A stretch of DNA of 64,000 bases from assembly GCA_963805085.1 (NCBI GenBank), contig CAWDTA010000002.1, positions 608,001 through 672,000 of the forward strand, given 5' to 3'. The notes under the pieces are model-generated. The model was not told where the DNA came from. It saw only the letters and a list, made by a program, of their open reading frames with translations, and did not search any database. How positions within the stretch are numbered: position 1 is the first letter of the stretch; each line of letters begins with the position of its first letter. The DNA is from an uncultured Veillonellaceae bacterium. GTDB lineage: Bacteria; Bacillota; Negativicutes; JARBTT01. Below, one piece after another: positions 30,970 through 53,643 of the stretch. A program made the translations under genes and the position numbers.

Positions 30970-31580
30970 GGGGTCAGGCTTAAGTTATATGTAAAATCGA
31001 CTTATTCTTCTTTAATCTTTAATTTTTAGTTAACTCTTGACAAATTCTTGTAATATTGGCTGGATCAATCTGTAGTACTTTGGCTAACTGCGTCCTTGTC
31101 ATTAAATCTCTCTCAAGCACTTCATAAATCAATCGCTTTCTAGCTGCTACTACCTTCCGTATCCGGCACTTCCCTACCAATTTCTCTTGACTTATTTCTT
31201 CCTCTACAGTAATCTTCTCTACGAGCTGTTCCCATGTTAACTTCGTTCGGCTTTGTTCCATTTTTGCTTGTAATAGAGTTTTTTGAGTCTCTTTCCCTTG
31301 TTCGTTTTCAACGCTATATTCCAGCTTATCAACGGCAGCCCCTACTAAAATCAGATACTGTGCCCTTGCCTGCTCAGTATTCGTACTCAATGTATTTAAT
31401 ATAAATTCTACATTTACTAATCCCGGTGCTCTTCTAACATATGACAGATGGCTGCTCCACCTATAGTCCACCCCTTCCAGCATGCTTGCCCGTACTGGAT
31501 TTTGATGAATATAACATATAAGAGCCATTAGATAACTCTCTTTCTCACAGATAAAGGCCTTGTAGCGTTGTTCAAATACA
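30970..31580 (-). pseudogene. Truncated TIR-flanked Y1 transposase element (3' part plus one TIR)
   Basis: TIR ggggtcaggcttaagttatatg at 30970; matches the 3' part of the 47996 copy; cut at ttcaaataca|aaaaacgcgggg. Confidence 0.9.
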
Positions 31581-31582
31581 AA

Positions 31583-31641
31583 AAACGCGGGGACAGGGGC
31601 TATGTTTCCTTATTTAAAACAACATCCCTGTCCCCGCGTTT
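31583..31641. repeat. Miniature palindromic element with GGGGACAG ends
   Basis: aaacgcggggacaggg...ccctgtccccgcgttt. Confidence 0.75.
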
Positions 31642-31893
31642 CTAAACCCAAATAATTATTCTTATTCATTCATCACCTACTATAATACAATATTATCCAT
31701 TATACTACACAACATGAAATAACTACAAAATTAACAAAACGTTAATTGAAAAAACAGGACTAAATTAATAGCCCTGTTTTATATGCTTACTATATATCTA
31801 ATTATCGTATTGACAAATCATGATATACTAAAGGTAAGATGTACTGAAACGGAAGCGGTTTGCTTAATCTGCCCCAAAAGGCAGGTGTTGCCA

Positions 31894-31962
31894 ATGGAGA
31901 ATATAATCATAATACTCATTATGATTTTTTTAATTCTCGTTGAAATGCAAAACAACCGCTAA
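31894..31962 (+). CDS. Putative type I toxin, 22-aa hydrophobic peptide MENIIIILIMIFLILVEMQNNR
   Basis: Single TM-like peptide; RBS in a stem; complementary 5' and 3' UTRs; convergent promoter downstream. Confidence 0.7.
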   Translation: MENIIIILIMIFLILVEMQNNR

Positions 31963-32046
31963 TCCCCTCGAAAAGTTTTAGCGGTTGTTTTTCTTAAAAA
32001 TACTTCTAAACTTTTTGCTTAGGCGAACCGTTTCCAGTACGTCTTT
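31935..32046 (-). ncRNA. Putative antisense antitoxin RNA
   Basis: TTGATA-17-TATAAT on minus (32081-32053); hairpin aaaacaaccgctaa/ttagcggttgtttt; extent approximate. Confidence 0.5.
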
Positions 32047-32111
32047 ATTTATATTATAACCACAATATCAATAAATATCAATGTAAAAACTATCAATTTT
32101 GTCAGACCCTT

Positions 32112-32584
32112 GGGGTCAGGCTTGATTTATATGTAAAATTGACTTATCTTCTTTAATCTTTAATTGTTAGTTAACTCTTGATAAATTCTTGTAATATTGG
32201 CTGGATCAATCTGTAGTACTTTTGCTAACTGCGTCCTTGTCATTAGATCTCTCTCAATCACTTCATAAATCAATCGTTTTCTAGCTGCTACTACCTGCCG
32301 TATCCGGCACTTCCCTACCAACTTCTCTTGACTTATTTCTTCCTCTACAGTAATCTTCTCTACTAGCTGTTCCCATGTTAACTTCGTTCGGCTTTGTTCC
32401 ATTTCTGCTTGTAATAGAGTTTTTTGAGTTTCTTTCCCTTGTTCGTTTTCAACGCTATATTCCAGCTTATCAACGGCGGCCCCTACTAAAATCAGATACT
32501 GTGCCCTTGCCTGCTCAGTATTAGTACTTAATGTATTTAATATAAATTCTACATTTACTAATCCCGATGTTCTTTTAACATATG
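32112..32584 (-). pseudogene. Truncated TIR-flanked Y1 transposase element (3' part plus one TIR)
   Basis: TIR at 32112; C-terminal coding sequence; cut at catatga|aaacgcggggacagg. Confidence 0.9.
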
Positions 32585-32610
32585 AAAACGCGGGGACAGG
32601 AAAACGCGGG

Positions 32611-33631
32611 GGTAAGTAGCCCGAGGGAATTTCACCCTCAGGCTCTCTCAGAACCGGACTTGAACCTCTCAATTCATCCGGCTCCCATCATCTAACCGTT
32701 GGAATAATTTCCATTCGCCAATGAACAAATAATTTCTGTTTGCTCTGTGCTATTTCCCTTAGCTTGTTTTGAGCGCGTCTTTTACTAGATTTTAACCTCT
32801 TATACTTCTTTACCATCCATCTAATCAGCGTCCAATTTAGTTTGTGTAATATTACTTTCATTGCTGATTTGTAAAAACAGCCGTAATAGTTTATCCAACC
32901 TCTAACTACAGGATTGACCATCTGGGCTATATCCACCAGTTCCTTCTCTGTCATCCGATGGATTTTCCATTGTCTTATGGTTTGCCCCATTGCTTTTACA
33001 GCTTTATTGCTTACTGCTGGTAGGAAGTTGAAAGTTCGTATGCTTCCATTACTACTTTCTTGGAAATTTCAAACGATTTTGTTTTGTTCATCGGCTCCTC
33101 CCTTTTGGTTGACCAGTGTTCAAAACTAGATAACACAGTCCCTTTGCTCCATTCCCATTACGGAATTTCATCACTATTACAGACTGTTCCGCCCCTATAC
33201 CCTGCATCTGTACTTTCGTCCTTGCGGGTTCTCCGCTTGAGACTTTTCCTTTATCATCAGGGTCGTAGGTTCCCACGTTCCTAACTAAAGCCTGTGCCAC
33301 GTTCACGCCGCCTCTATACCGGTCGCCATCTGGACAGTAATCAGGTTTCCTCCAGATTCATCCCGGACTACCTGTCAGAACCCGGTTTTGACGACATTTG
33401 CAAGTTTCGATACTTCTACAGCGGTTCAATTTTGTTCGTCTCCATTGGCACTTACCTAACGAAATCTTGTTTCACCTTTTTCCCGTAACGCTCACCACCA
33501 CGGCTTTTGACCGCAGCAGCTTACGGTGGTTTGAAGTCTCCACCTGTATGGCGACTTCGGAGGGCCTTCCTCCATCTCTAGTTAAGCGTAGAGTGTGGAC
33601 GCTAAAGCTTTCACACTCTTTCGTGGCACAC
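32611..33631 (-). mobile_element. Group II intron (class D-like) with internally deleted RT ORF
   Basis: 5' GTGTGCCACG; domains V/VI gagccggatgaattgagaggttcaagtccggttctgagagagcc...ctacttac; maturase remnant NPVVRGWINYYG. Confidence 0.88.
32688..33091 (-). pseudogene. Group II intron-encoded protein remnant
   Basis: MNKTKSFEISKKVVMEAYEL joined out of frame to NFLPAVSNKAVKAMGQTIRQW...; no YADD or RT core. Confidence 0.85.
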
Positions 33632-33827
33632 ACGCGTCAACTTGTCTATTGATTGGGATTTCGAGGCTCAATCTCTTCAACTTATGCTTACGTCCTACTA
33701 TCTTGCTGTCTACGCTTAACCACATGAGTTACCCCATGCCGTCCAAGACTCGCTATGAAGGGTCTGCTAAACCTTGTTCATCGGGGTTCCCACCCGCTAT
33801 ATGATGTACCCCCTTACCTTGGCGCAC
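33632..33827 (-). mobile_element. 5' fragment of a second group II intron
   Basis: Starts GTGCGCCAAGGTAAGG...AGCGGGTGGGAACCCCG; interrupted by the class D-like intron. Confidence 0.65.
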
Positions 33828-33877: not shown

Positions 33878-35254
33878 CTACGATCCAATAAGCCCTGATT
33901 CCTGTTGCTCAATTTCCTCCAGTGTGCGTCCGCGAGTTTCTGGCACACGAGTCAATACAAACAAAACACCCAGCATACAAATGGCACCGAAGATGGCGAA
34001 CACTGCCGCCTGCGACATAGCACCCGTCATAATAGGGAACAGCAATCCGACCAGCCAGGAACCGATCCAATTGAAGGATGATGCCAATCCTGCCGCTCGA
34101 CCGCGAATAGCCAACGGAAATATTTCTCCCACCAGAACCCACGTAATTGGTGCCCATGTAGCTGAATAGAAGGCAACATAAATAGACAGAAAAAATACAA
34201 TCATCATCGGACTTGTACCCGGTATAAGCCAGTTAATGACCTCTGGCAGAACGAAGGATAACCCCATGATGAAGCCCCCAACCATTAAAAGCGTACGCCG
34301 GTTGAATTTTTCCGCAATCCAAATATATACCAACGACCCAAAAACAAGTATGATCCCTTGAATAATCGGCCACATTAATTCGTTGGTCGCGGCACTGCTG
34401 GTTGCCGTTTCCACAATGAGAGGAATGTAATAAAAGATAGCATTTGCTCCCTGGAATTGCTGGAAAGCGGCGACACCGACACCAGCAATAAGCAGATAAC
34501 GATATCTTTGGCTAAGTAGAGTCCCCCAGCTAATTTGATTCTCCGACTGATTTGCTTGTGCCGCGGTCTCTTTAATTTCTCTAAATTCGTTGTCAATTTC
34601 ATTTTCAGGGCGAACATAACTCAATACCCGCCGCGCCTCATCATAATGACCGTTTTTAATCAAATAGCGCGGAGATTCAGGCAAGCGCAGGACGCCAAAA
34701 AACAAGGCAACAGCGGGCAGGCAGGCAAAGCCCAGCATCAACCGCCAGGACATTTCGCCCGGCAAATCCTTCATTAAAAAATCGACAATATATGAAATCA
34801 ACATACCTGAAACGATCATGGTCTGATTAATTCCAGAAAGACGTCCGCGCATACGGGCCGGCGCCAACTCGGAAATATAGGCTGGTACTAAGGCTGAAGC
34901 TGCGCCAACACCCAGCCCCAAAAGCACACGGGCTATGATCAAATAAGTTTGTCCATTATTGGGAACTATCCCCGACACCAGTGCGAAAATCGCAAATATT
35001 ACGGCTGAAATCAAAATCATTTTACGCCGCCCTAATTTATCCGCAAGCTGACCGGCCAAAGCACCGCCAAAAATTGCCCCGAACATAACCGAAGATGTGA
35101 TCCAACCAATCTTTGAGGCATCAGTAAGATGCCAGTCGTGCGTCAAAAAGGGCAGCGCCCCAGTCATAACACCGATATCATAACCAAAAAGAATGCCACC
35201 AAATGCTCCGAAAAAATAAATATAATACCTTGATATTTTCTTTGTCTCTTCCAT
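33878..35254 (-). CDS. araE: MFS sugar porter, probable L-arabinose:H+ symporter
   Basis: FGYDIG, DKLGRR, PESPR, QQFQGAN, PETRG; next to araA. Confidence 0.85.
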   Translation of the reverse strand: MEETKKISRYYIYFFGAFGGILFGYDIGVMTGALPFLTHDWHLTDASKIGWITSSVMFGAIFGGALAGQLADKLGRRKMILISAVIFAIFALVSGIVPNNGQTYLIIARVLLGLGVGAASALVPAYISELAPARMRGRLSGINQTMIVSGMLISYIVDFLMKDLPGEMSWRLMLGFACLPAVALFFGVLRLPESPRYLIKNGHYDEARRVLSYVRPENEIDNEFREIKETAAQANQSENQISWGTLLSQRYRYLLIAGVGVAAFQQFQGANAIFYYIPLIVETATSSAATNELMWPIIQGIILVFGSLVYIWIAEKFNRRTLLMVGGFIMGLSFVLPEVINWLIPGTSPMMIVFFLSIYVAFYSATWAPITWVLVGEIFPLAIRGRAAGLASSFNWIGSWLVGLLFPIMTGAMSQAAVFAIFGAICMLGVLFVLTRVPETRGRTLEEIEQQESGLIGS

Positions 35255-35496
35255 TTTTGCACCTCTCCATTATTATAAGAAGATACTGGAATTTATTCCG
35301 GGATTCTCCCAAAACCAATATTCTTAATGCGATTTCTAATCCGAAAACAGCTCTGTTTCAGGTTCTTTGTATCTATAATCGATGATATAATTCCCCTACG
35401 GACACGAAAATCGGTTGAATTTCATCTATGGTTATGTTTGCATTTCAGGCGTAATACAAATTTCGCCCGAAATGCAAACTTTATTTGTCGGCAGTC

Positions 35497-36921
35497 TTAA
35501 TCAATCACAATCGATTCAATACCGAACATCCCAGCCAGATCATTGATTTGTTCTTCTGTTAATACAAAAGAAAAAACAGAATGATGTCCGCCGCCATTTT
35601 GAATCCATCTAATCGCTCCTTCCTTAAGACCAACTTTCGGCGTCCATAATTGCTTAGCCACTGGCAAATGAGGCGTATCTTCTTCTGGTTTGTTGCCAGT
35701 TACCGGATAGCTAAGCAATTTAAAACCGTCAGAAAAATGCGAAAGGGTCACATCAATGGCATCTCCTTCAGAGCCTGTAAACACAAGGCGTGCCGGATCT
35801 CCCTTGCCACCGATATCGAGCGGATGAACTTCAACACGTGGTTTTTCACTAGCAATCGACGGATCCACTTCCAACATGTGAGCCCCTAAGATGGCTTCAT
35901 GCCCTTTTCGCAAATCAAGAGTATAATCTTCCATGAAAGCAGTCCGCTCATTATGCGCCATAATTTTCAGCAATCTGCTTAACCCGGCGGATTTGCCGTC
36001 GCCCTCAGCACCAAAACCATATCCATCACGCATCAACAATTGGCTTGCAAGACCGGGCAACTGTTCCAGACCGTGCAGATCTTCAAAATTTGTAGTAAAG
36101 GCCGTATATCCACCGCGTTCCAAAAATCTTTTAATACCGAGATATTCTTTCAGTTGAACCCGTACTGAATGTTCAAATTTATCGGTGCTGTTGTTACCTT
36201 GAACCAAAGTATACTGTGCCTGCAAAGCTTTGTATTCCTTATCTATGTCGCTACCGCTGACTTTAGTGATTTCTTCTACCAGATCGCCAACACCGTAATA
36301 GTCGATCGTCCAGCCAAGTGTTATCTGGGCTTCAACTTTATCAAGCTCAGTAACGGCAACATTGCGCATTGTATCACCGAAACGGCATATTTTGATTTTA
36401 AAGCTTTCGTTATAAGCCACAGCTACATCTTCCCAACAGGCAATTTCTTTCTGAACCTCTTCATCCCCCCAGTAGCCATAAACAATTTTATTGTTTTTGC
36501 GCAAACGGGCATTGATGTACCCATATTCACGATCACCATGCGCACTTTGATTCAGATTCATATAATCAAAGTCAATTGTACTATAGGGAATTTTATCTAA
36601 ATACTGAGTTGCCAAATGCAATAAAGGCTTCTGTAGCAGCTTCGTGCCTCGAATCCAATTCTTTGCCGGTGAAAAAGTATGCATCCATGTGATAACACCA
36701 GCAACATTGTCGTTATAATTTGCTTCTTTCATAAATTTAGTAATCCCGTCGGCAGTCGTCATAACATCTTTAAATACAATTTTGTAAGGCAACTTACCGC
36801 TCGTATTCAATTTTTTCACAACATCCTGTGCATCATCGGCAACCTGTTTTAATTGTTCCTCCCCATAAAGAAATTGACTTCCGGTGACAAACCAAAATTC
36901 ATACGCTGGAACTGATAACAT
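35497..36921 (-). CDS. araA: L-arabinose isomerase
   Basis: [49 protein letters not shown]. Confidence 0.97.
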
Positions 36922-37032
36922 TTTTCATTACTCCTTTGTCTAAAATATGGATATAATACGATATTAATTAAATTTAAAATTTTCAGTTTATTAAGACCTA
37001 AAACAATGTTTTGAATTTTTGCATAAAACTCC

Positions 37033-38643
37033 TCATTTTTCCTCATGAAGCTTATCAATCGCATTTTGTTCAACAGACAAACCTGCCTGATAAATCCTGA
37101 TGAATTTTTCATATCCGATGACGCCTATTGGCTCTGGATTCAACGTCATTGCTTCGGGATTTGCAAAAACTTTTTGGTCCAGAAAATCCTCAAGACTCTT
37201 AGTTTTGTCACCTTCTCTTACGTAGGATGCCAGTACCGCCATGCCCCAAGGCCCCCCCTGGCTTGCAGTTTTCATAACCGTAATGGGCGTGTCAAGCGCA
37301 TTGGCTAAAATTTGTTGGGCAATCACCGGTGTTTTGAAGAGTCCGCCCTGTGCAATAAGAACTTCGGTTTTTATCTGTTCTTCATTTTTCAAGATATCCA
37401 TACCGATTTTCAACGGAGCAAACGCGGAATAAAGCTGCGTTAAAATAAAGTTCGCCAAAGAAAATTCACAATTCGGCGTTCTGACAAATAGAGGCCGCCC
37501 GGCAGACATTTTGGTGATATTCTCACCTGACAAATAGCTGTAATTGACAAGTCCGCCTGCATCAGGCTTAGCCTTTGCAGTCACAAGGAACAATGCTTCA
37601 TACAATTTATCCGGCTTTAAATCAACGCCAAGCCGACTAGCAAACTGTCTGAAAATTTCCGCCCATGCATTGATATCTGACGAGCAGTTATTAATATGTA
37701 CCATCGCCACCGGAAAACCGTCCGGCGTCATTACGATGTCGATGTCGCGGTGCACTTTTGCTAACGGCTTATCCAGAACCACCATCGAAAAAGCAGAAGT
37801 TCCCACCGAGATATTACCCGTTCTTTTCCGAACGCTATTTGTCGCTACCATTCCGGTACCGGCATCGCCTTCCGGAGGCGCCATTATGCTGCCACTGACA
37901 AGATTCCCATTAACATCAAGCAATTTGGCTCCTTCTTCACTCAACATTCCGGCTGCTTGCCCCGCTTTAAGCACCTTAGGCAGAATACCATGAATATCCC
38001 ATGGATATTTCTTTACCTCCGCCAATTGACTAAAGCATTTTAAAAATTCTTCATTGTACGTACCTGTTTGTTCATCAATCGGAAAAGCTCCCGACGCATC
38101 CCCGATGCCAAGAATTTTCTGCCCAGAAAGTTTCCAATGTACATAACCTGCCAGAGTGGTGATGAATACTATTTTTCTGACATGCTCCTCTTCATTCAAA
38201 ACAGCCTGATATAAGTGCGCAATACACCAACGCTGTGGAATATTGAAACCAAATAGCTTTGTCAGCCTGTCTGTAGCCGGGCTAGTTGTATTGTTCCGCC
38301 AGGTTCTGAAAGGAGTTAGTAACTCATCTTCTTCTGAAAAAGCAAGATAGCCATGCATCATAGCACTGATACCAATCGAGCCGATATGAATCAAAGACTG
38401 ATGATACTTGCTCTTAACATCTGCCGTCAACTGTCTGTAACTTTCCCTGATTCCTTCCCATACCTGATCCAAAGGATAAGTCCATATGCCCTCCTTGTAC
38501 TGATTCTCCCAAACATAACAACCTGACGCTACAGTCTTAAAATCATCGGTGACCAGCACCGATTTGATTTGCGTCGATCCTAGCTCAATTCCAAGGGAAA
38601 TACGTCCTTCTTTTATTGCTTGAGAAATTTCTACTAAATTCAT
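37033..38643 (-). CDS. araB: FGGY-family kinase, L-ribulokinase (Firmicute AraB type)
   Basis: GIELGSTQIK, SAMMHGY, PEGDAGTGM, SVGTSAF; ara context. Confidence 0.82.
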   Translation of the reverse strand: MNLVEISQAIKEGRISLGIELGSTQIKSVLVTDDFKTVASGCYVWENQYKEGIWTYPLDQVWEGIRESYRQLTADVKSKYHQSLIHIGSIGISAMMHGYLAFSEEDELLTPFRTWRNNTTSPATDRLTKLFGFNIPQRWCIAHLYQAVLNEEEHVRKIVFITTLAGYVHWKLSGQKILGIGDASGAFPIDEQTGTYNEEFLKCFSQLAEVKKYPWDIHGILPKVLKAGQAAGMLSEEGAKLLDVNGNLVSGSIMAPPEGDAGTGMVATNSVRKRTGNISVGTSAFSMVVLDKPLAKVHRDIDIVMTPDGFPVAMVHINNCSSDINAWAEIFRQFASRLGVDLKPDKLYEALFLVTAKAKPDAGGLVNYSYLSGENITKMSAGRPLFVRTPNCEFSLANFILTQLYSAFAPLKIGMDILKNEEQIKTEVLIAQGGLFKTPVIAQQILANALDTPITVMKTASQGGPWGMAVLASYVREGDKTKSLEDFLDQKVFANPEAMTLNPEPIGVIGYEKFIRIYQAGLSVEQNAIDKLHEEK

Positions 38644-38957
38644 TAAAAACAGTACACCTCCCAAAATCCAAATAATATCACTTTGGCTTCATTCTTATAT
38701 ACAATACAAGCGTTGAATAAAGCATGACTTTCTATTATGTAGAAAGTTGTGATTTTTCAGACTAATTATAAATAACACCTACTCTGACCTAATGTCACGC
38801 CAAGAACCCGCTTCATCATATATGCAAGCATCCTGAAGCAATGCGGCGTATATTGCTTTTGGTCAAGTGAAAATTTACAGTCTGCCATAAAAAACTGATT
38901 CCATCGACTATACGTTTAATACCAAACTATCTTCTTTAAATTTATCCTCCTTTTAAA

Positions 38958-38992: not shown

Positions 38993-39141
38993 TCTTTTTT
39001 ACTGTAAATATTTATTTAAAATATTATGAATAAAATTTTTATGAATGGACAATTCTTTAATTTTTTTGGCTGAAATTTGAACAAATCATTATTTCAAATT
39101 TTTTATTGATGTTCTTTCAACAAGGTTCGGTAGGAACCATT

Positions 39142-40126: not shown

Positions 40127-40152
40127 AATAGTTTTTATTTTATACTAGTATA

Positions 40153-41184: not shown

Positions 41185-41568
41185 TTTTCCACCTCATATA
41201 CTCTAGAGTACAAGCTCTATTTTTTTAGAAACCCATTTCCTAACCAGAAAAACCTTACTTATGTTCGAAATCACAAATTTTTAGGGCATGTTTACCGAGA
41301 GACTACTTCTATACAATAGGCTTTGTATTACTTCAATGTATCACACACCTCCAATGCCATTTTTTTATTTTACCTCCCCTTTCTTTATCCGTACAAAATC
41401 TCTAATTTTTAGCTAATTGTCCATATCATTTTGGGATTACTAGCAAGCGATATCGCTTAACATCAGCCGAAAGCTCTCCCGAATAACCGAGTGTTTTCAT
41501 ATTTTTCATTTCTGATTTCTAAAAAATAAGCTTTAAAGCCAGTTTTTGCACTACAAAAGTTAATTTGA

Positions 41569-42749: not shown

Positions 42750-43818
<1,069 letters not shown>

Positions 43819-43856
43819 ATCATTTATCCTCCATTCACTCTCTATCTCAATTGAAC

Positions 43857-45473
43857 TTATGCCTTAAGTGTTAATCCTTCTTGTCGCGGATCACTGACTC
43901 CAACCCATGTATTGCCTTCTTTAACTGCTAACTGTGCTCCACCACCAGCCTTATATAGCGGTACTTTCCTTACAGGATGTCCCTTCTTTAAAAGTTCGTC
44001 TATCGTGCTGGCAGGACATGTCTCTTCAATTTTAAGTTGTATTTTATCACTAGGTTCGCTTGGATCATTACCAGGAATAAACGTCCATCGCGATTCATTA
44101 TTTAACAGTTTTTTTATATTAGCATTATATACTAAAATTTTATATAGATTCTGGCTATTCCATTGTATCTGCCCGTCTCCACCAGGTGTACCGCCTACAC
44201 ATATACATTCTTTAGCTTCATTTAGCACTACAAAGGATCCTAATGTATTGATTGGCCTTTTTCCGCCTTGAATACAATTAGGATGAGATGGATGCATGGT
44301 AAAGCCTCGCCCAACGCGATTGTTTAAAATAATACCTGTATCTCCTATAGTAATGCCAGCTCCAAAACCTAAAGATAGACTTGCTATGCAACTACAAACA
44401 TTGCCATCCTTATCTATAGCATAAAAATAGGTCGTATCTCCATAGAAATAGTTACTATTGCTCTTTTTTATATTTTTAGCTTTGTCATAAGATATCTGAT
44501 TTCTAATATATTGAATCATACTATCTGAAAACATATAATCTAAATCTACAGAAACAAATTTAGGATCACCAATATAATTTCCTCTAATCTCATTGATGCA
44601 TTTTACAGTCTCAACCATATAATGTATCAAATCAGCTTCATTGCGTATGTTTATATTTTCTAAAACTTTTAGTGTTAATAACATCATAAAACCTTGCGAG
44701 GGCAATGAGTTCTGATAAATATAATTTCCTTTAAATTTTATTTCTAAAGGTTCTTCAAATTGCACTGAAAAATTTGACAGATCTTCTTTCGTAAAAAATC
44801 CATTATTAGCTTTAGATGTAGCAATGAGCTTGTCTGCAATTTCACCTTGATAAAAAAAGTTTCTTCCTTGATTCGCCACTTTTTCAAGAGTCACACCAAG
44901 TTTTTTTTGCTGTAATGTTTCTCCACTATTATAAAACTCGCCATTTTTATAATATATGTCCAATAAGTTTCTATCATTTAATGCTGTCTTATGGCAATTC
45001 TTCAACCAGTGGCTTAATTGAGGAGTAACCTCAAATCCATCAATGGCATATTGTATTGCGGGCTGCCATATTTTTTTTAATGGCATACTGCCAAATTTAT
45101 TCAAAAGTTCAAAATAAGCAGCAGGTGCACTTGGAACTGCTGAGGACGTTATCCCTAACAGAGGCAGGGATGAATATCCATTATTAATAAAATACTCTGC
45201 ATTAATTTTGGATGGAGCAGTTCCAGCTCCATTTAATGAATATACTTTCTTTTCTGCAGCGCAATAATATAATAAAAACAAGTCTCCACCCAAACCACAA
45301 GACATTGGTAAGGTTACATTCAAAACCCCTGCCATAGCTAGGCAAGCATCTGCTGCGTTTCCTCCATTTTTTAAGATATCCACTCCTGTTTTTGTAGCCA
45401 ACTGACTTCCGCTTGCAACCATTCCAAACGTCTTACTGTTATTATACGCTAACTCTTCCTGATTTAAGTTCAC
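43857..45473 (-). CDS. ggt: Gamma-glutamyltransferase family (Ntn hydrolase)
   Basis: GGNAADA, GLGGDLF, GDTTY nucleophile Thr, LNNR, GTPGGDGQ, SDPR. Confidence 0.9.
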   Translation of the reverse strand: MNLNQEELAYNNSKTFGMVASGSQLATKTGVDILKNGGNAADACLAMAGVLNVTLPMSCGLGGDLFLLYYCAAEKKVYSLNGAGTAPSKINAEYFINNGYSSLPLLGITSSAVPSAPAAYFELLNKFGSMPLKKIWQPAIQYAIDGFEVTPQLSHWLKNCHKTALNDRNLLDIYYKNGEFYNSGETLQQKKLGVTLEKVANQGRNFFYQGEIADKLIATSKANNGFFTKEDLSNFSVQFEEPLEIKFKGNYIYQNSLPSQGFMMLLTLKVLENINIRNEADLIHYMVETVKCINEIRGNYIGDPKFVSVDLDYMFSDSMIQYIRNQISYDKAKNIKKSNSNYFYGDTTYFYAIDKDGNVCSCIASLSLGFGAGITIGDTGIILNNRVGRGFTMHPSHPNCIQGGKRPINTLGSFVVLNEAKECICVGGTPGGDGQIQWNSQNLYKILVYNANIKKLLNNESRWTFIPGNDPSEPSDKIQLKIEETCPASTIDELLKKGHPVRKVPLYKAGGGAQLAVKEGNTWVGVSDPRQEGLTLKA

Positions 45474-46299
45474 ATATAGCCCCTCCTTTCTTCTTAGCTA
45501 TACAAAAGGCACTGGCATGATATGTCGAATATTGTTCATTGTTATTGTCCAATTTAAGCTTTTCTATAAAATAACTACAGACAGCATCCTGCTGTTTTTT
45601 ATCTAGAGGATGAAGCCACATACTTCCTGATGCTTTTAACCAAGAAAAGTATTCTTCAAAATTGGAAAAATATACTTTTCTTAATACCAGTCCATAATCA
45701 CTTACTACTAAATCTTTTTCAACAAACGACCTCATTAATTCCACAGGTGTAATCCTTCTTTTACTAAATGAATCAAACTTCTTATAATAATCCACAAGAC
45801 CTAGCTGGTTTATAGACAACAGAAATTCTCTTTCTTCTTCATCTAGTACTGCTTCGATTTCATTATCAATTCCTGCAGTATATATTGCCAAAATCCCATC
45901 ATTCCTCAAAGAAGATACCAATTTTTCTAAAACACGCTCTTTATTAAACCAATGAAATGCAGCATTACTTATTATGACATCATAAAGATCTATATCTAAC
46001 TCCTCAATATTGCCTTGAATAAATTTTATATTATGAATATTTAACAAATCAGCTTGTTTCTTCCCAACATCAAGCATGTCAGAAGATAAATCTATACCAG
46101 CGAAATTACAGTTAGGATGTTGTTGTGTCAAATGTAGTAAAATATTCCCCGTTCCACAACCAACATCAAGAACATGATCTCCCTCCTTTAACTGAATATT
46201 CCTGACTAGTTCTAAACCGTTTAAGAATTGTGCTTTTGTGTTTAAATCTTTATAGATATCCCCGTCAACCCAATAGTTTTTACTCATGATTTTCCCCAC
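45442..46299 (-). CDS. Class I SAM-dependent methyltransferase
   Basis: VLDVGCGTG, GIDLS..ML, YDVIISNAAFHW. Confidence 0.9.
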   Translation of the reverse strand: MGKIMSKNYWVDGDIYKDLNTKAQFLNGLELVRNIQLKEGDHVLDVGCGTGNILLHLTQQHPNCNFAGIDLSSDMLDVGKKQADLLNIHNIKFIQGNIEELDIDLYDVIISNAAFHWFNKERVLEKLVSSLRNDGILAIYTAGIDNEIEAVLDEEEREFLLSINQLGLVDYYKKFDSFSKRRITPVELMRSFVEKDLVVSDYGLVLRKVYFSNFEEYFSWLKASGSMWLHPLDKKQQDAVCSYFIEKLKLDNNNEQYSTYHASAFCIAKKKGGAICELKSGRVSV

Positions 46300-46345
46300 A
46301 ATCGCTATTGCATTACTCTTACTTATTTTAAACCTATAAGTTTCC

Positions 46346-46948
46346 CTACACCATCTTAAGTAAGTGATGACATCGCTCTTTCTTAGTTTTTAAATACTGT
46401 CTATTATGAAGATTAGGTGAAATTTCGATTTGCTCTACTTTGATTTCAAAGCCACTATCGACTAACGCTTTTATTTTATCTGGATTATTCGTCATTAATC
46501 GTAATGATCGCATTCCTAATTCTTTTAATATGTATACAGCAAAACTATAGTCTCTTGAATCATTGGCAAATCCAAGTTTTATATTTGCTTCAACAGTATC
46601 TAAGTTAAATTTTTGTTGAAGATAATAAGCATTTGCTTTATTAAATAACCCGATTCCTCTCCCTTCTTGTCTAAGATAAATTAAGACACCTAATTTTTCA
46701 TCAGCAATTCTTTTCATTGCTTCTCTTAATTGGTTCATACAATCACATCTCAAGGAAGTAAATACCTCACCAGTAATACATTCAGAGTGAATTCTTACTA
46801 ATGCACCTTTTTTTAATGTTTTTATATTACCCATTGATAATACAATCGGATTACTCCCATCAAACAATTCAAATACTTGGGTCTTAAACTCCCCAAACTC
46901 CGTAGGCAGTGTAAATTTTTCTGAAGACCTCATAACCAATTTTTCCAT
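46346..46948 (-). CDS. ribA: GTP cyclohydrolase II
   Basis: VRIHSECITG...RCDC, RQEGRGIGL, DSRDY, LMTNNPDK. Confidence 0.95.
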   Translation of the reverse strand: MEKLVMRSSEKFTLPTEFGEFKTQVFELFDGSNPIVLSMGNIKTLKKGALVRIHSECITGEVFTSLRCDCMNQLREAMKRIADEKLGVLIYLRQEGRGIGLFNKANAYYLQQKFNLDTVEANIKLGFANDSRDYSFAVYILKELGMRSLRLMTNNPDKIKALVDSGFEIKVEQIEISPNLHNRQYLKTKKERCHHLLKMV

Positions 46949-47000
46949 TTTTATTAATCTCCTCAACATAGGTTTTCATCTCTAAAAAATTCATCCTTAG

Positions 47001-47822
47001 TCATATATTTAATATTTGTCTTGCTTCTATTGGTGTCGCAATCTCCCTCCCCATCTCCACAGAGTATTTCGTAATACGTTCTACTAATTGTGCATTACTT
47101 GATGCTAATTCATGATATTTATAATAAACATTATCCTCAAAACCCGTTCTTACATGTCCCCCCGCTAAGATACCAGCCAAATTCATAGGCAATTGACTAC
47201 TCCCTACCGCAGCAACAAACCAGTTGCTGTCTTTAGGAATACTTTCAATTAAAAACAATAGATTTTTTACACTAGCTGGTATACCACCATTAACCCCCAG
47301 AACAAATTGAAAATTTAAAGGTCCTTTCACTATGCCTTTTCGTGCAAATTCAACAACATGTCCTATCATTCCAAAATCGAATATCTCAAATTCGGGTCTA
47401 ATTTGGTGCTTGCCAATTTCTTCAGCCAATTTTAAAATAAAGCTTGGTGTGTTAATGAATACCTTACCATTTCTATTAAAAGACCCTGGTGTAAAAGATG
47501 CTATTTCTGGCATACATGTTAATGGTTTTAAACGGCTTGAATCATCTCCGTCCACATTAAAACCTGTGGTTGTTAGACAGATTAATATATCAGTTTTTTC
47601 TCTAATTCGTTCTAATATTTCTCGATATACCTCTACACGCTGACTTGGTGTTCCATCGCACTCTCTTGCATGAATATGGACAATAGATGCTCCTGCATTC
47701 CGGCAGTCATACACAGATTGAGCTATTTCTTTGGGTGTTATCGGTAAATTAGGATTATTCTTCTTTGTTGTAATGCCTCCATTAATTGCGGCGGTAACAA
47801 TCAACTTATTCAACCTTATCAC
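47001..47822 (-). CDS. BKACE / 3-keto-5-aminohexanoate cleavage enzyme family (DUF849)
   Basis: TAAING, PITPKEIA, AGASIVHIHAR, PEFEIFD, GHVRTGFEDN. Confidence 0.92.
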   Translation of the reverse strand: MIRLNKLIVTAAINGGITTKKNNPNLPITPKEIAQSVYDCRNAGASIVHIHARECDGTPSQRVEVYREILERIREKTDILICLTTTGFNVDGDDSSRLKPLTCMPEIASFTPGSFNRNGKVFINTPSFILKLAEEIGKHQIRPEFEIFDFGMIGHVVEFARKGIVKGPLNFQFVLGVNGGIPASVKNLLFLIESIPKDSNWFVAAVGSSQLPMNLAGILAGGHVRTGFEDNVYYKYHELASSNAQLVERITKYSVEMGREIATPIEARQILNI

Positions 47823-47953
47823 CTTCTATACTTTTTTTATTTTTCTTACACTAATGTAGAAAATTGCCCATTAATAATTCAATATGAACATCGCCTTAAT
47901 ATTAATTTACCATATTTACTAATTAATGCAAATAATTATATAACTTGACCCTC

Positions 47954-48930
47954 GGGGTCAGGCTTGAGTTATATGTAAAATTGACTTATTCTTCTTTAAT
48001 TGTTAGTTAACTCTTGACAAATTCTTGTAATATTGGCTGGATCAATCTGTAGTACTTTGGCTAACTGCGTCCTTGTCATTAAATCTCTCTCAAGCACTTC
48101 ATAAATCAATCGCTTTCTAGCTGCTACTACCTTCCGTATCCGGCACTTCCCTACCAATTTCTCTTGACTTATTTCTTCCTCTACACTAATCTTCTCTACG
48201 AGCTGTTCCCATGTTAACTTCGTTCGGCTTTGTTCCATTTTTGCTTGTAATAGAGTTTTTTGAGTCTCTTTCCCTTGTTCGTTTTCAACGCTATATTCCA
48301 GCTTATCAACGGCAGCCCCTACTAAAATCAGATACTGTGCCCTTGCCTGCTCAGTATTCGTACTCAATGTATTTAATATAAATTCTACATTTACTAATCC
48401 CGGTGCTCTTCTAACATATGACAGATGGCTGCTCCACCTATAGTCCACCCCTTCCAGCATGCTTGCCCGTACTGGATTTTGATGAATATAACATATAAGA
48501 GCCATTAGATAACTCTCTTTCTCACAGATAAAGGCCTTGTAGCGTTGTTCAAATACATGTCCGCTATGTTTCTGATGCCAATTATAATGTTGCGTGTACC
48601 TCTGTTGAATGCCTTGCATAATTTTTGCCAATGGATCTTTTCCTACTTGAAGTAGTAAGTGGACATGATTGTCCATAATCACATAAACGTACAATTGAAA
48701 GTCATATCGCTTTTTATAGTCGGCTAAGATCTCTAGATATTTACCTTTTTCTTCCTCTATTTCAAATACATGTTCCCTATTATTTCCTCTGGCTATTACG
48801 TGATAGATTGCACCTTCATAGTGTACCCTTGGTCTTCTTGCCATCCTTCTCACCCACCAATCTTTCTTGATTTCAAGCTTAGCAGGTCTTTACTATAAGT
48901 CAATTTTTCATATAACTCAAGCCTGACCCC
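47954..48930 (-). mobile_element. Complete TIR-flanked Y1 transposase element, 977 bp
   Basis: Same 36-bp TIRs at both ends. Confidence 0.9.
47996..48844 (-). CDS. Y1 HUH transposase (RAYT/TIRYT-like)
   Basis: NHVH HUH motif, YIHQNP catalytic Tyr. Confidence 0.92.
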   Translation of the reverse strand: MARRPRVHYEGAIYHVIARGNNREHVFEIEEEKGKYLEILADYKKRYDFQLYVYVIMDNHVHLLLQVGKDPLAKIMQGIQQRYTQHYNWHQKHSGHVFEQRYKAFICEKESYLMALICYIHQNPVRASMLEGVDYRWSSHLSYVRRAPGLVNVEFILNTLSTNTEQARAQYLILVGAAVDKLEYSVENEQGKETQKTLLQAKMEQSRTKLTWEQLVEKISVEEEISQEKLVGKCRIRKVVAARKRLIYEVLERDLMTRTQLAKVLQIDPANITRICQELTNN

Positions 48931-48940
48931 AAAACACCCC

Positions 48941-49207
48941 ACTCTTAATAATATAGCTGATTTTTTTGGGGTATCAATTGATTACCTCCTCGGTAGAGAA
49001 AACCTATCTACAACCAGTGTTGCCCCCGCCTCGCAAATAACAGAATTATCACAAGAAGACCTTGCTCTTCTTGAAGTAGCCCGCCAATTAAAAAACCTCC
49101 CGGACACTGACCGGAAGGAGATCGAATCGTATATTCAATATAAAAAACACAGCAACAAAAATAACGTTCAAGCCGATGCAAAAAAAAATAAGAAATCTAC
49201 CGTGTAA
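48941..49207 (+). pseudogene. 5'-truncated XRE-family HTH regulator
   Basis: Frame reads TLNNIADFFGVSIDYLLGRE...KKSTV*; begins next to the TIR. Confidence 0.75.
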
Positions 49208-49526
49208 TGTCTTCATGAAAATGATTTAATAACGAATACATACTTTCCAAAATTAATAGCAGAAAAGCCACTACACGTCAAAAAATCCTTCCAGCAAAAC
49301 GCTAGAAGGATTAAAATTATTAGATTAGAACTTTGAACCCTCGACCCACGGCTTGGGAATGAATTATGTAAATTTTATATTATAATTTTATTTTTACATA
49401 ATCTATAAAATCAATAATTCAAGGGTTTACTTTTTTATAAATTCCACTAATTATTTTATTTCTAGTGTTTATTGTCCACCTTTTAACCACCTATCATAAT
49501 GATTAACAAAAGATGTAATATTATCC

Positions 49527-51372
49527 TTAATCACCAAAATCAATTTTTTCTTCTGCAGCATTGAAAATATCAATTCTATTTTCAACATCAATTTTATTAA
49601 CAAGCCATCCTCTGAGTAAACAATTTTTTATAAAATCATCAATTCGATTGACACCATCTATCTCTTTTAACGTTACTACAATACCAAACTTTATCCCTAC
49701 TCCATATTTTTCATCTAAACGTTCTTTTGTTTTTAAACTTACTCCCCAAATTTCTTTATCATAGCGCTTTTTCGCACGATTAACTTTTTTTGACACTTCC
49801 CTAATGTGCTTCACATTATCCCATTTTCTAAAATACTTTCTTGCATCTTCCTCCCACGTAAAATATTCAACTTCCGCACTTTGATAATTATTATCTATGG
49901 GCTTTATTCCCTTATCAGTTAACCTACCAAGTTGTATTTCAAGTTCCGTATTTGTATAATCAACCCCTTGGCTTCGAGAACAACAGGGGAAATAACATAA
50001 AGTTGCTTTTACAATAAAGGGATGTTTTTCCTTACTTATGGGCACAGGAATATTATAATTGTATGTATCATATTTTTCCGAAACACCCGATAAAACAAAT
50101 TGTATCTCATCATCTGGACAACGAACGATATCATCAATTTTCATTGGAACTATTCCGTGCCCAATAAGAGAAGAGTCAACTACTTGCTTATCCCAACCAG
50201 TTGCCGCATTTATTATTAGAGCTTTTGCCACTTCTCTGCTTAATCCTAGAATATTAATTAAATAAGACATTTTCCTTGCTATCCAGGGGGCTGCAAAAGA
50301 GGTTCCTCCTACAAACGCTTCACCAGTTGAAGTGCATACTCGCATAAGATTTGCTCCATCACCACCGTAATAACTGATATCAGGTTTTGTAAAAAATGAT
50401 AACACCGGACCTTTCCGAGTATAAGAGGCAGGGCGGTTATCAAAATTAACAGAATTAACAACCAGCGAATTTATAGAGTCAGCAGGTGCCCCTATAGCCT
50501 TAACTTGTTTTTCAGTAGAAACTTTATTAGTTCCGGCAATAATAAATGTTACATCACTTTCATACTGTATTCTATCCAATATTGCTGCTTCAGGCGAAAT
50601 GAAGTTTGGATTTATTTCAAGCTTAGATCCGAGAGATAAATTCCAAACTTTAATATCTTTGTTTGACGATATTATTTCATTAATATTTCTTAAAATTGTA
50701 AATGAACTAAACTGATTTCCGGCAGCAACACCAAAATGTCGTACGCGAAACCTACCACAACCATCATCCATATGAGGATTAGATGAAGGACCGTCTACTA
50801 TAATAGAGGATACCGCGGTTCCATGATTATAGTCGTTTGTTGATAACGAAATATCTTCGGGCAACATATTTTTAAATTCAACCCACTCAGAAAAGTATAC
50901 CTTTTCATCAAACATAGTATCAATTACACCGATTATAGGTTCATTCTTAGGGGAAGGAATAGCTATTACAGTATGATCACAAAAATCAAAATCAACTTTT
51001 GTTAGTTTTGTTATGTCACTAACTGCCATAGATATTAAATATGGAGCTTTTTGTTTTAAAAGAGCTAATTCATCAGGTCTTAATAAAATTGTCGTATCAT
51101 CCATTACTCTAGTAAACTGCAAACTGATACCTAACTTTTCCATGAGCTTTGTTGCCTTAACATCTGTTTTATATATAGTAATAATAGCTTCATCTTTTAA
51201 ATCTATATCATCAACTAATACATCAAATTTTTCAACATAAAAAGCATCTACTATTACCTTAAGAAAATTAGTTTTTGCAATCTTTGATGGGGTAAAGGCA
51301 ATTTGTTTTGAATTAATTTTCTCGATTATGTCATGGGTGATTGCCCCATTGAATTTTTTATTTAAGACTCTT
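49527..51372 (-). pseudogene. S8 subtilisin-like protease (IetS-like), N-terminus removed by the TIR junction
   Basis: IGVIDT, HGTAV, NLSLG, GTSFAAP triad; the ORF start lies inside the duplicated TIR end. Confidence 0.8.
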
Positions 51373-51388
51373 GGGGTCAAAGACTCTT

Positions 51389-51526
51389 AGGGTCAGGCTT
51401 GAGTTATATATAAAATTGACTTATTTTTCTTTAATTGTTGGTTAACTCTTGACAAACTCTTGTAATATTGGCTGGATCAATCTGTAGTACTTTGGCCAAC
51501 TGCGTCCTTGTCATTAGCTCTCTCTC
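51389..51526 (-). pseudogene. Short remnant of the TIR-Y1 element (TIR plus last codons)
   Basis: agggtcaggcttgagttatat followed by the RTQLAKVLQIDPANITR coding sequence. Confidence 0.85.
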
Positions 51527-51705
51527 ATGAACGCCTCTCCAGTTCCTTAATTATCTTGTCAAAATCCGACTCAAACTGTTGGTCCTGTATAACCCTATAT
51601 TTATTGTATTCACCTTCCGCCAGAGCTGCAGCTACCTGATGCGATATCTTTCCTGCATACTGCAAAACCTCATACTCGTTGAATTGAAGAAAGGCATCCA
51701 GATTA
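51525..51705 (-). pseudogene. RhuM-family protein, C-terminal fragment
   Basis: LDAFLQFNEYEVL..AGKISHQVA..LAE.EY.KYR..QD..FESDFD. Confidence 0.7.
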
Positions 51706-51744
51706 TAATATTCGAGCTTACGCGACACTTCCCGTTTCCCTTCA

Positions 51745-52490
51745 ATCAAAACCACCCGTCCAACGGGTGGTTTGAACTGAGGCTGTAAGCCTCTATTACT
51801 AGCCAGCGTCTAAAGGCGCTGGCTTTCACTTTGTTCAAGCCACTGTGGTTTTGTCATTTTTACTATCCCTCAAGGGATATTTGTACTATTTTACTTTTTA
51901 CCCTTAAAAGGGTCTTCATATTCTCTAACACTTAATTTATCTAGTGCCTGATCATGTTTTTCTTGCTCTTGTATATATTTTTTTATAGTGGCTTCATTCA
52001 ATCCTACTGTACTTACATAATATCCTTCTGCCCAAAAATGTCTGTTCCCATATTTATACTTTAGGTTACTATGCTTTTCGAATATCATCAGTGCACTTTT
52101 TCCTTTTAAGTATCCCATAAATGCAGATACACTAATTTTCGGTGGTATTGACACTAACATATGCACATGGTCTACCATCAAATGCCCCTCTAATATTTCT
52201 ACCCCCTTGTAACTACATAATCTCCTTAATATTTCCCCTATACTTTCTCTGTATTGCCCATATATTATTTTTCTTCTATACTTCGGCGTAAATACTATAT
52301 GATACTTGCACATCCATTTGGTATGTGCTAAACTTTGAGCCATAAACTCACCGATCCTTTCTTGTAATAGTGGCCTGAACACCCTCTATTATAAGAATCC
52401 GGTGAGTTTTTGTATAACTTCTGTCGCGCACCTGCATAGCAGGTGGTTTTTTGTTTCGTTCGCTTCGCTACCTCAACAGACTAAAGTCTA
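51745..52490 (-). mobile_element. IS200/IS605-family element (tnpA only)
   Basis: Subterminal hairpins aaccacccgt-cca-acgggtggtt and cacctgc-ata-gcaggtg; ends approximate. Confidence 0.8.
51891..52343 (-). CDS. tnpA: IS200/IS605 transposase TnpA
   Basis: CKYHIVFTPKYRRK, DHVH, LKGKS, FWAEGYYVSTVG, YIQEQ. Confidence 0.96.
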   Translation of the reverse strand: MAQSLAHTKWMCKYHIVFTPKYRRKIIYGQYRESIGEILRRLCSYKGVEILEGHLMVDHVHMLVSIPPKISVSAFMGYLKGKSALMIFEKHSNLKYKYGNRHFWAEGYYVSTVGLNEATIKKYIQEQEKHDQALDKLSVREYEDPFKGKK

Positions 52491-52658
52491 AATTTGAACT
52501 GTCAAAATTTCTTTGACAGTTGCTTCTCGATCCAATTCATTCTCTTTATAAATGTTCTGTAAATGATAGCTGATACTTTGTTTGCTCGTACCAAACAGTT
52601 CTGCCATGCGATTCATAGCCCATGGTAGCCTATGGGGTCATAGCCTATGGTAGCCCTC

Positions 52659-53643
52659 GGGGTCAGGCTTGAGTTATATGTAAAGTTGACTTATTCTTCT
52701 TTACTCTTTAATTGCTGGTTAACTCTTGACAAATTCTTGTAATATTGGCTGGATCAATCTGCAGTACATTGGCTAACTGCGTCCTTGTCATTAGCTCCCT
52801 CTCAAGCGCTTCATAAATCAATCGTTTTCTAGCTGCTACTACCTTCCGTATCCGGCACTTCCCTACCAACTTCTCTTGACTTATTTCTTCCTCTACAGTA
52901 ATCTTCTCTACGAGCTGTTCCCATGTTAACTTCGTTCGGCTTTGTTCCATTTCTGCTTGTAATAGAGTATTTTGAGTCTCTTTCCCTTGTTCGTTTTCAA
53001 CGCTATATTCAAGCTTATCAATGGCAGCCCCTACTAAAATCAGATACTGTACCCTTGCCTCCTCAGGATTAGTACTCAATGTATTTAATATAAATTCTAC
53101 ATTTACTAATCCCGGCGTTCTTCTAACATACGACAGATGACTGCTCCACCTATAGTCCACTCCCTCCAGCATGCTTGCCCGTACTGGATTTTGATGAATA
53201 TAACATATAAGAGCCATTAGATAACTCTCTTTCTCACAGATAAAGGCCTTGTAGCGTTGTTCAAATACATGTCCGCTATGTTTCTGATGCCAATTATAAT
53301 GTTGCGTGTACCTCTGTTGAATGCCTTGCATAATTTTTGCCAATGGATCTTTTCCTACTTGAAGTAGTAAGTGGACATGATTGTCCATAATCACATAAGC
53401 GTACAATTGAAAGTCATATCGCTTTTTATAGTCGGCTAAGATCTCTAGATATTTGCCTTTTTCTTCCTCTGTTTCAAATACACATTCCCTATTATTTCCT
53501 CTGGCTATTACGTGATAGATTGCACCTTCATAGTGTACCCTTGGTCTTCTTGCCATCCTTCTCACCTACCAATCTTACTTGATTTCAAGCTTAGCAGGTC
53601 TTTTACCATAAGTCAATTTTTCATATAACTCAAGCCTGACCCC
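52659..53643 (-). mobile_element. Complete TIR-flanked Y1 transposase element, 985 bp
   Basis: Same TIRs at both ends. Confidence 0.9.
52708..53556 (-). CDS. Y1 HUH transposase (RAYT/TIRYT-like)
   Basis: NHVH and YIHQNP motifs; near-identical to the other copies. Confidence 0.92.
   Translation of the reverse strand: MARRPRVHYEGAIYHVIARGNNRECVFETEEEKGKYLEILADYKKRYDFQLYAYVIMDNHVHLLLQVGKDPLAKIMQGIQQRYTQHYNWHQKHSGHVFEQRYKAFICEKESYLMALICYIHQNPVRASMLEGVDYRWSSHLSYVRRTPGLVNVEFILNTLSTNPEEARVQYLILVGAAIDKLEYSVENEQGKETQNTLLQAEMEQSRTKLTWEQLVEKITVEEEISQEKLVGKCRIRKVVAARKRLIYEALERELMTRTQLANVLQIDPANITRICQELTSN

Follow-up and report, generated by a model that had tools for sequence, protein, structure and literature searches.

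INTRODUCTION

The TIRtron, with its transposase gene of the TIRYT type, was named in 2013 (Di Nocera, De Gregorio & Rocco, 2013; PMC3733652), and the consensus GGGGWSAS is given for the ends of its terminal inverted repeats (TIRs) both in that account and by Quentin et al. (2018; PMC6006769), who equate TIRYT with subclass 2.1 of the TnpA-Y1 enzymes. The parts of the 2013 account drawn on here describe mostly one gene per repeat type and contain no account of movement. We have analyzed 64,000 nucleotides (nt) from an uncultured Veillonellaceae bacterium (GenBank assembly GCA_963805085.1, contig CAWDTA010000002.1, positions 608,001 to 672,000 of the forward strand; the whole of this stretch is called the window), in which a TIRtron is found in six copies that all point the same way. 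Probably, though only just, the array is an insertion hotspot in an ordinary accessory island, which has been cut and reshuffled by co-oriented copies that recombine and by other mobile DNA. An earlier note on the window had proposed instead a local platform for one-ended gene capture, driven by an enzyme related to the transposases associated with repetitive extragenic palindromic (REP) sequences, the RAYTs. Two inverted repeats that can pair in single-stranded DNA (ssDNA) also form the REPINs, reportedly described by Bertels and Rainey in 2011 and thought to be moved by RAYTs.

RESULTS

The element is a TIRtron

The repeated element is a TIRtron, that is, the gene of a RAYT-like Y1 transposase of the HUH type, with a C-terminal helix–turn–helix (HTH) domain, between 36-nt inverted repeats. 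Y1_Tnp is the sole Pfam family on the protein (54.6–59.6 bits, for a cut-off of 23); no Pfam HTH family passed its cut-off. An alignment of 15 relatives shows no change in any of them at H63, H65, Y122, N126 and P127, the residues of the HUH motif and of the class-2 signature Y---NP. With the NCBIfam RAYT equivalog NF047646 the protein scores 69.1–73.4 bits, under the cut-off of 80, and with the IS200 model NF033573 21–25 bits, far under the cut-off of 55. A Foldseek search with a predicted model of the transposase (pLDDT 79) returned the E. coli REP-associated transposase 4ER8 as the top match (E = 8e-8; TM score 0.72 on the target), followed by the TnpA proteins of ISDra2 and IS608. A phmmer search of the PDB gave no match, and a profile of the 15 relatives matched PDB chains in the C-terminal HTH domain only; the catalytic domain was seen only by the fold search. 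With this profile the helical domain at residues ~212–285 (the last ~75 of the protein) matches winged-HTH chains of MarR/AdcR (E = 4e-4), and its likeness to domain IV of DnaA is weak (E = 0.25 with the profile and 0.001–0.004 in another search). The presence of this C-terminal extension agrees with subclass 2.1, the members of which have one like Bac_DnaA_C, HTH_23 or HTH_28, so that the TIRYT-type Y1 enzyme named in the earlier note is confirmed by family, catalytic residues, fold and repeat tip alike.

The gene is flanked by long inverted repeats, not by REP hairpins, and the repeat tip, GGGGTCAG, fits the published TIRYT consensus. In 50 distinct repeat instances the outermost ~21 nt, nearly constant from phylum to phylum, are 80–99% conserved and the 10 nt outside 40–60%. 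Behind the invariant tip, each repeat (for example, at 47964–47989) carries two direct 9-mers, TTGAGTTAT and TTGACTTAT, about 17 nt apart and kept in the relatives, which may be binding sites of the HTH domain. The truncated copies A and B (see below) have open reading frames (ORFs) of 169–170 codons (31019–31528 and 32160–32672) that span only the HTH half of the transposase, and the putative proteins could bind the repeats without nuclease activity.

Six co-oriented copies lie within 23 kb

A repeat search combined with alignment locates six copies of the ~0.98-kb element within 30970–53643, designated A to F from left to right (Table 1), all with the gene on the minus strand; the three full and three truncated copies correspond in number, position and orientation to those listed in the earlier note. 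Each of the full copies C, D and F has an intact ORF of 285 codons and inverted-repeat arms of 36–38 nt that are 94–97% complementary. In the truncated copies A, B and E the sole TIR kept is the one downstream of the gene (the gene-3′ TIR). No direct repeats surround the full copies, the left/right flanks of which read ccatt/aatag (C), ccctc/aaaac (D) and ccctc/aatag (F), which bears out the claim that conventional target duplications are absent. Moreover, a DNA search of the host assembly (5 contigs, 4.2 Mb, 83% complete, 6% contamination), the count of copies elsewhere that the earlier note had called for, revealed no further, scattered copies, and on contig C1 one gene-less TIR doublet of ~100 nt. 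With 6 of 6 copies within 23 kb of 4.2 Mb, the clustering is far beyond chance.

The ends of the copies differ in what lies beyond them. Copy C is the sole copy in which the outer 7–8 nt pair as inverted repeats; the outer extensions of D and F do not match and, because of this mismatch, the ends of D are probably chimeric. The right flank of F, AATAGTTTTTATTTTAT, is common to copy C, and in its left flank (about 52607–52658) a 25-nt sequence with a tip-like GGGGTCA is repeated in tandem. Between the stop codon and the gene-3′ repeat lies a 7-nt microsatellite (CTTTAAT on the window strand) of 1 to ~11 units among the copies, found at 31006–31018, at the equivalent spot of each copy and, in the contig L125 of a related strain, at L125:13320–13395.

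The copies are 93.7–96.8% identical in pairwise comparison, with the exception of A and D (99.3%). For copies C, D, F and F′ (a full copy in L125), synonymous divergence (dS) is 0.07–0.12 and the ratio of nonsynonymous to synonymous divergence (dN/dS) 0.22–0.32, and in a table of the variable sites each copy is a patchwork of the others. To judge from these values, the copies are old, under selection and recombining, and do not stem from a recent burst. Since they are 3–6% divergent and mosaic, recombination between old copies would explain much of the pattern.

The island is rearranged at repeat tips in a related strain

L125 is a metagenome contig of one related strain, of which 16 of 35 kb were compared; the evidence, here and for the other runs, consists of contigs. 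It carries the same island at 95–99% identity in another arrangement. From the rRNA genes it is collinear with the window through nagB, nagA and the gene for EIIA of a phosphotransferase system (PTS) to the full copy F′, which occupies the F site and keeps the 17-nt right flank. Window positions 39142–52658 (13.5 kb with copy C, the flavin-like cluster, copy D, the XRE fragment, the S8 gene, copy E, the RhuM fragment and the IS200 gene) are absent, and the gene-3′ tip of F′ joins the araR-like regulator ~170 nt further upstream than the tip of C does in the window. F and F′ thus have a common right flank and different left flanks and, because the two araR-like junctions are ~170 nt apart, neither arrangement can be derived from the other by a single crossover between C and F. 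Further along L125, copy B′ has the same break as B, and its gene-3′ tip abuts the XRE gene. In L125 the N-terminal HTH of this gene is present and its C-terminus missing; the window has the C-terminal part, abutting the other tip of D, and 191 nt of the gene are retained in both strains. A 136-nt fragment, E′, lies directly against a 537-nt fragment, A′, followed by DNA absent from the host assembly. A perfect 68-nt hairpin that follows the stop codon of the araR-like gene (L125:6340–6407) is absent in the window.

Four strain breakpoints thus fall at repeat tips: left of F, left of C, left of B and right of D. The earlier note had expected strains to differ at the tips and had regarded the XRE and S8 genes as cut at TIRs. 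The four breakpoints agree with the first of these claims; a deletion described below, which involves no TIR, does not. As to the second, the N-terminal HTH of XRE found in L125 establishes that this gene is cut, whereas the S8 ORF is open into a tip-like repeat beside E and is at most a candidate for such a cut.

In public sequencing runs the island is represented by small shares only, up to 0.10 of the words sampled, in 7 runs from 4 studies; contigs of 4 of these runs were compared. Those of three further runs contain a copy inserted in a methyltransferase gene, two joints between a fragment and the next tip (both in run X7) and an internal-deletion derivative with both repeats kept; in contigs of run X1 the likeness to the window stops exactly at 39142 and 40126. 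Contigs of 3 runs share a 6.3-kb deletion in the DNA between C and D (41302–47631), the ends of which are intergenic and inside the BKACE gene, and neither end has a TIR.

Fragments keep the gene-3′ end

All nine fragments with a single TIR keep the gene-3′ TIR: A, B (counted together with B′) and E in the window, A′ and E′ in L125, one fragment each in genome G080 and at locus L097, and the two X7 joints. None retains the gene-5′ repeat alone, apart from a gene-less 29-nt solo tip in genome G018 and, ambiguously, L128. At the break of five of the nine the neighboring sequence is a TIRYT-type tip, namely for A and B (GGGGACAG-type tips), A′ (the tip of E′) and both X7 joints; at the break of B the tip is followed by the 3′ end of a group II intron. 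The tips beside A, in the hairpin at 31583–31641, fit the TIRYT consensus and belong to another family. The breaks of E and E′ abut ordinary DNA. The complementary junction, of a gene-5′ tip with internal sequence, was found neither in the window nor in L125 nor among the 6 other-run joints listed. That short fragments might break at one hotspot was considered and rejected, the breaks being at 131, 139, 151 and 175 nt.

Wherever the native target is known (XRE twice, the araR-like gene and a nested copy), 7–9 non-native nt stand between tip and target. Both ends of the near-identical copies of G018 have identical outer extensions, which is to be expected of an extension that normally moves along with its element. 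The idea that tandem repeats of the form "flank + tip" are confined to the gene-3′ end was rejected, with ~9 at gene-3′ and ~5 at gene-5′ ends in other genomes.

Orientation follows the leading strand

The window occupies 0.61–0.67 Mb of contig C2, the GC-skew minimum of which is near 0.8 Mb; because the window lies left of this minimum, its minus strand is the leading strand. The leading strand carries 1738 of the 2087 ORFs of at least 250 codons (83%), and the co-orientation of six copies, which the earlier note pointed out, is for that reason unremarkable. The host genome also has ~18 further matches to Y1 paralogues, 28–41% identical to the transposase, each with its own inverted repeats of 31–33 nt of the GGGGACAG or GGGGACGG type (for example, C2:248508–249008, 548505–549008 and 1595093–1595662), and gene-less doublets of such repeats elsewhere (for example, C2:1455685–1455741). 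Outside the island, 16 of 18 of these other matches are on the leading strand (p = 0.40 against the 83% baseline). A replication-linked orientation as a special trait of these genes was therefore rejected.

The family beyond this genome

The 19-nt core of the repeat, GGGGTCAGGCTTGAGTTAT, is found exactly in 60 stretches of a collection of species-representative genomes from very distant phyla, including Sporomusaceae, Syntrophomonadaceae, Pelotomaculum, proteobacteria, an Arthrobacter and a Sphingobacterium. One Syntrophomonadaceae metagenome-assembled genome has dozens of matches on dozens of contigs, many at contig ends, and many sites are gene-less, as solo repeats, inverted doublets 50–150 nt apart or tandem tips. 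The nearest named relatives of the protein (74% identical) are from Pelosinus and Sporomusa, and 13 of 300 other genomes of the class have a homologue at E ≤ 1e-70, mostly in 1–2 copies. Two of these 13 genomes have co-oriented clusters of their own: G018, with three ~99% identical full copies and the solo tip within 11 kb, and G080, where 10 kb contain two full copies and one gene-3′ fragment. The two copies of G080 have a dihydroxyacetone kinase (dha) operon between them, where G086 has one copy, the flanks of which are unlike those of both G080 copies (a comparison within the genus Pelosinus, in a variable toxin/immunity array). Both clusters are in neighborhoods of polymorphic toxin and immunity genes (an EndoU nuclease with CdiI in G018, Imm26 and Imm30 in G080), with IS3 and IS1182-like transposases nearby. 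A genome of the same genus as the host, G001, retains 77 nt of the right flank at a contig edge and none of the left flank. The rearrangement of the island at tips in L125, the strict gene-3′ bias and the co-oriented clusters in two other genomes are new here.

Gene content of the island

The features of the island are collected in Table 1. The gene cluster between C and D is an unusual combination, and a DNA search of 300 other genomes from the class gave no match to it. Immediately to the left of copy A (26402–30822) are an IS256 transposase of the Mutator family, a protein with a RES domain and two ORFs that have no family assignment. At the 3′ junction of the group II intron, a 16-nt repeat is in tandem in the window and single in L125. 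The 23S and 5S rRNA genes at 58406–61563 bound the island on the right and, since the region is rRNA, the ORFs listed there are spurious; a second stretch that resembles the end of an rRNA operon is at 1287–1591.

Table 1. Features of the island, in window coordinates.
Feature	Position	Strand	Remarks
Copy A	30970-31580	-	truncated TIRtron, 611 nt; gene-3′ TIR (30970-31005) and C-terminal 169 codons kept
Hairpin	31583-31641	.	59 nt, two inverted GGGGACAG-type tips; abuts break of copy A
Copy B	32112-32585	-	truncated TIRtron, 474 nt; gene-3′ TIR kept
Group II intron remnant	32590-33800 (outer limits approximate)	-	domains V/VI 32611-32686; D1-D4 33454-33573
Maturase fragment ORF in the intron remnant	32688-32990	-	100 aa
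MFS sugar transporter, L-arabinose isomerase, FGGY kinase	33878-38664	-	collinear and 98.9% identical in strain L125
araR/LacI-like regulator, last codons	39087-39133	-	cut by copy C; L125 has ~170 nt more, cut there by F′
Copy C	39142-40126	-	full TIRtron; outer 7-8 nt also inverted repeats (39135-39177 / 40091-40133)
C-D segment	40153-47822	-	two methyltransferases, GT2 glycosyltransferase, two lumazine-synthase-like, gamma-glutamyltranspeptidase, GTP cyclohydrolase II, BKACE
Copy D	47954-48930	-	full TIRtron; two outer extensions unlike each other
XRE-family gene, without N-terminal HTH	48931-49207	+	begins 7-8 nt past right tip of D
S8 subtilase ORF	49527-51380	-	5′ end enters tip-like repeat beside E
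Copy E	51389-51527 within 51364-51527	-	139-nt gene-3′ fragment; 16-nt "flank + tip" tandem copy (51364-51388) ahead
RhuM-family fragment	51525-51755	-	
IS200-type Y1 transposase gene	51891-52382	-	
Copy F	52659-53643	-	full TIRtron adjoining PTS EIIA; same site occupied in strain L125
PTS EIIA	53652-54122	-	right border of array; collinear with L125 onward to 23S/5S rRNA genes

DISCUSSION

In the explanation that we favor, an accessory island beside an rRNA operon would have received insertions of the TIRtron many times over a long period. The copies follow the leading strand like nearly all local genes and are kept intact by purifying selection. Gene conversion would pass sequence from copy to copy and, because the copies are direct repeats, recombination between them would delete or reshuffle the DNA in between. 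Insertions of other mobile DNA (repeat doublets of a second TIRYT family, the group II intron, an IS200) and ordinary deletions would have left the 3′ fragments, and what look like cassettes would not have been captured but would be the island genes left over between sites of insertion. That the family is mobile is indicated by the spread of the 19-nt core over many phyla, as solo repeats, doublets and tandem tips, and by the X1 contigs, in which the likeness stops exactly at the two ends of copy C. This explanation is also supported by the other mobile DNA found at the breaks of A and B and by the deletion between C and D, which has no TIR. In the manner of a giant REPIN, the element may move as ssDNA in which its two repeats pair with each other, and presumably re-inserts locally; recombination, rather than the transposase, probably made most of the junctions.

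Several observations weigh against this explanation. Plain random insertion cannot produce the extreme clustering in the 4.2-Mb assembly and is inadequate for the recurrence of co-oriented clusters in G018 and G080, so that local re-insertion has to be assumed. Random deletion would be expected to spare the gene-3′ TIR in about half of the fragments, and not in 9 of 9. The araR-like gene and XRE have two different tip junctions each in the two strains, which take about four events by insertion plus recombination as opposed to two by tip-anchored deletion. The 7–9 nt beyond the gene-3′ tip differ by about half among copies with interiors only 3–6% divergent, and these outer nt are complementary to the tip to a degree well above the chance level (mean stem 3.2 vs. 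1.16; 0 of 20,000 resamples as high). Finally, A′ (at L125:14174) and the unrelated L128 (at L128:301), 94% and 69% identical to D in protein sequence, have internal breaks no more than 2 nt apart, near residue ~127 and just before the tip-like GGGCAAGC; what follows the break is the tip of another copy in the former and, in the latter, 22 nt from the start of its own gene-5′ repeat.

These points leave room for a one-ended, tip-anchored rearrangement, which we regard as unlikely on balance: TIRYT would nick ssDNA at the gene-3′ tip and join that end to a nearby site or pseudo-end. It is possible, if doubtful, that adjacent DNA is deleted or occasionally relocated in this way, the left-hand neighbors being eaten from their 5′ side to leave gene-3′ fragments that often abut tips. 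That the fragments keep the gene-3′ TIR without exception, with five abutting a TIRYT-type tip, and that no gene-5′ tip is joined to internal sequence, would follow directly, as would the unlike left flanks of F and F′ beside a common right flank and the two cuts in the araR-like gene 170 nt apart; palindromic filler at the gene-3′ tip and the internal breakpoint shared by A′ and L128 point the same way. It is above all the end bias, the paired junctions of the araR-like gene and XRE and the palindromic filler that keep the one-ended mechanism of the earlier note alive, tentatively, as a minority view. However, nested insertion in the same orientation followed by recombination yields the same junctions. 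The end bias could also come from selection against 5′ fragments, which would carry a promoter and a bare nuclease domain. Moreover, the DNA at the breaks of E and E′ is ordinary and no tip, other genomes have "flank + tip" tandem repeats at gene-5′ as well as gene-3′ ends, and the three ~99% identical copies of G018 have the same extensions at both ends, as ordinary whole-element transposition would give. In any event, the tip-anchored strain differences and the end bias fit one-ended mobilization, and recombination and selection fit them too.

In its boldest form, which seems to us rather unlikely, TIRYT would be asymmetric in its action, with one-ended strand transfer from the gene-3′ tip to nearby ssDNA sites or pseudo-ends, palindromic filler, and neighboring DNA deleted or relocated, and the co-oriented array would be a self-renewing engine of rearrangement and cargo shuffling. 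If so, Y1 enzymes would have their own equivalent of the one-ended transposition of IS91/ISCR, and TIRtrons a first mechanistic handle, which are widespread; one-ended action would be a new way for HUH enzymes to remodel chromosomes. If one-ended action is not real, what the locus documents well is how recombination makes a hotspot of insertion decay. Either way it offers a natural experiment, in which two strains have the same island rearranged at tips, with a strict end bias, a variable extension and an internal pseudo-end used twice.

Shuffling of whole cassettes is a less probable source of the two arrangements. Homologous recombination, in which a circle of copy plus cargo re-enters at another copy, could move them, though we consider it improbable; equally hard to credit is composite transposition, in which an outer inverted-repeat pair (for example, the left repeat of B with the right repeat of D or F) would move the enclosed genes. 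The mosaic copies do indicate that copies recombine, XRE keeps its orientation but is found left of B′ in L125 and, in the window, to the right of D, the segment 39142–52658, bounded by C and F with their common 17-nt right flank, is absent from L125, and the dha operon of G080 lies between two copies where G086 has a single one. Yet L125 cannot be derived by recombination between C and F alone, given its additional 170 nt of the araR-like gene, the flanks of the G086 copy are unlike those of both G080 copies, and the DNA search for the C–D cargo in 300 further genomes of the class gave no second location. As for an assembly artefact, with copies misplaced or multiplied by the assembler, the incomplete and partly contaminated 5-contig assembly and the ~1-kb length of the repeats would allow it, but it is very improbable, because the copies are 3–6% divergent with different flanks and because independent assemblies reproduce several junctions, namely EIIA to F and B to intron to ara in L125 and, in contigs of 3 runs (2 studies), C to methyltransferase.

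There is nothing to support gene capture of the integron or ISCR kind, as the earlier note envisaged it, and none of the defining parts is present: no Y2/IS91-type enzyme, attC or ori and ter ends were found, and no integrase is encoded by the 36 ORFs scanned over 21.4–59.7 kb. The intervening DNA includes genes that the elements have broken (the araR-like regulator and XRE), as opposed to captured cassettes.

IS91 and ISCR elements use a Rep-like enzyme with two tyrosines, and their ori and ter ends are unlike each other and have no inverted repeats. The likeness of the locus to them is by analogy only (an HUH enzyme, one end seemingly weightier than the other, and adjacent DNA affected), whereas the element studied here has a Y1 enzyme and inverted-repeat ends. 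To integrons the array is similar only in the picture of co-oriented units parted by a recurring sequence; in contrast, IntI, attI and attC are absent, the DNA between the units is of operon size with some of its genes broken, and it is a transposase element that recurs. With the IS200/IS605 family (IS608, ISDra2), in which orientation is tied to replication in the part of the survey drawn on (PMC6006769), the element shares the Y1 HUH fold and the lack of target duplication, but that family has subterminal hairpins and asymmetric ends, where the element has inverted repeats; the IS200-type gene in the same island allows a direct comparison. The REPtron, with the RAYT or TnpA-REP of E. coli (4ER8), is the nearest solved fold, with the same HUH and Y---NP residues and a presumed action on folded ssDNA. 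Here, in contrast, REP hairpins and a GTAG tag are absent, the transposase has an extra HTH domain and stays below the cut-off of NF047646, and the gene is multi-copy, with three intact and three broken copies where RAYTs usually occur as one gene per genome and REP type.

The locus is closest to the described TIRtrons, with which it shares a RAYT-like Y1 HUH gene between TIRs rather than REP hairpins, the GGGGWSAS tip and the C-terminal HTH domain, and also, as far as the portion of the 2013 account used here extends, the gene-less single repeats, dimers and groups seen in some genomes and a patchy taxonomic spread (PMC3733652). It differs from the mostly single genes per repeat type in that portion (PMC3733652) by the three intact and three broken copies in 23 kb and, measured against the same material, by the strain rearrangements at tips, the end bias of the fragments and the variable outer extension of 7–9 nt. 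The gene-less doublets, here and in other genomes, look analogous to REPINs; unlike a REPIN, the TIRtron encloses a whole gene between its paired repeats, and the unit itself is multi-copy.

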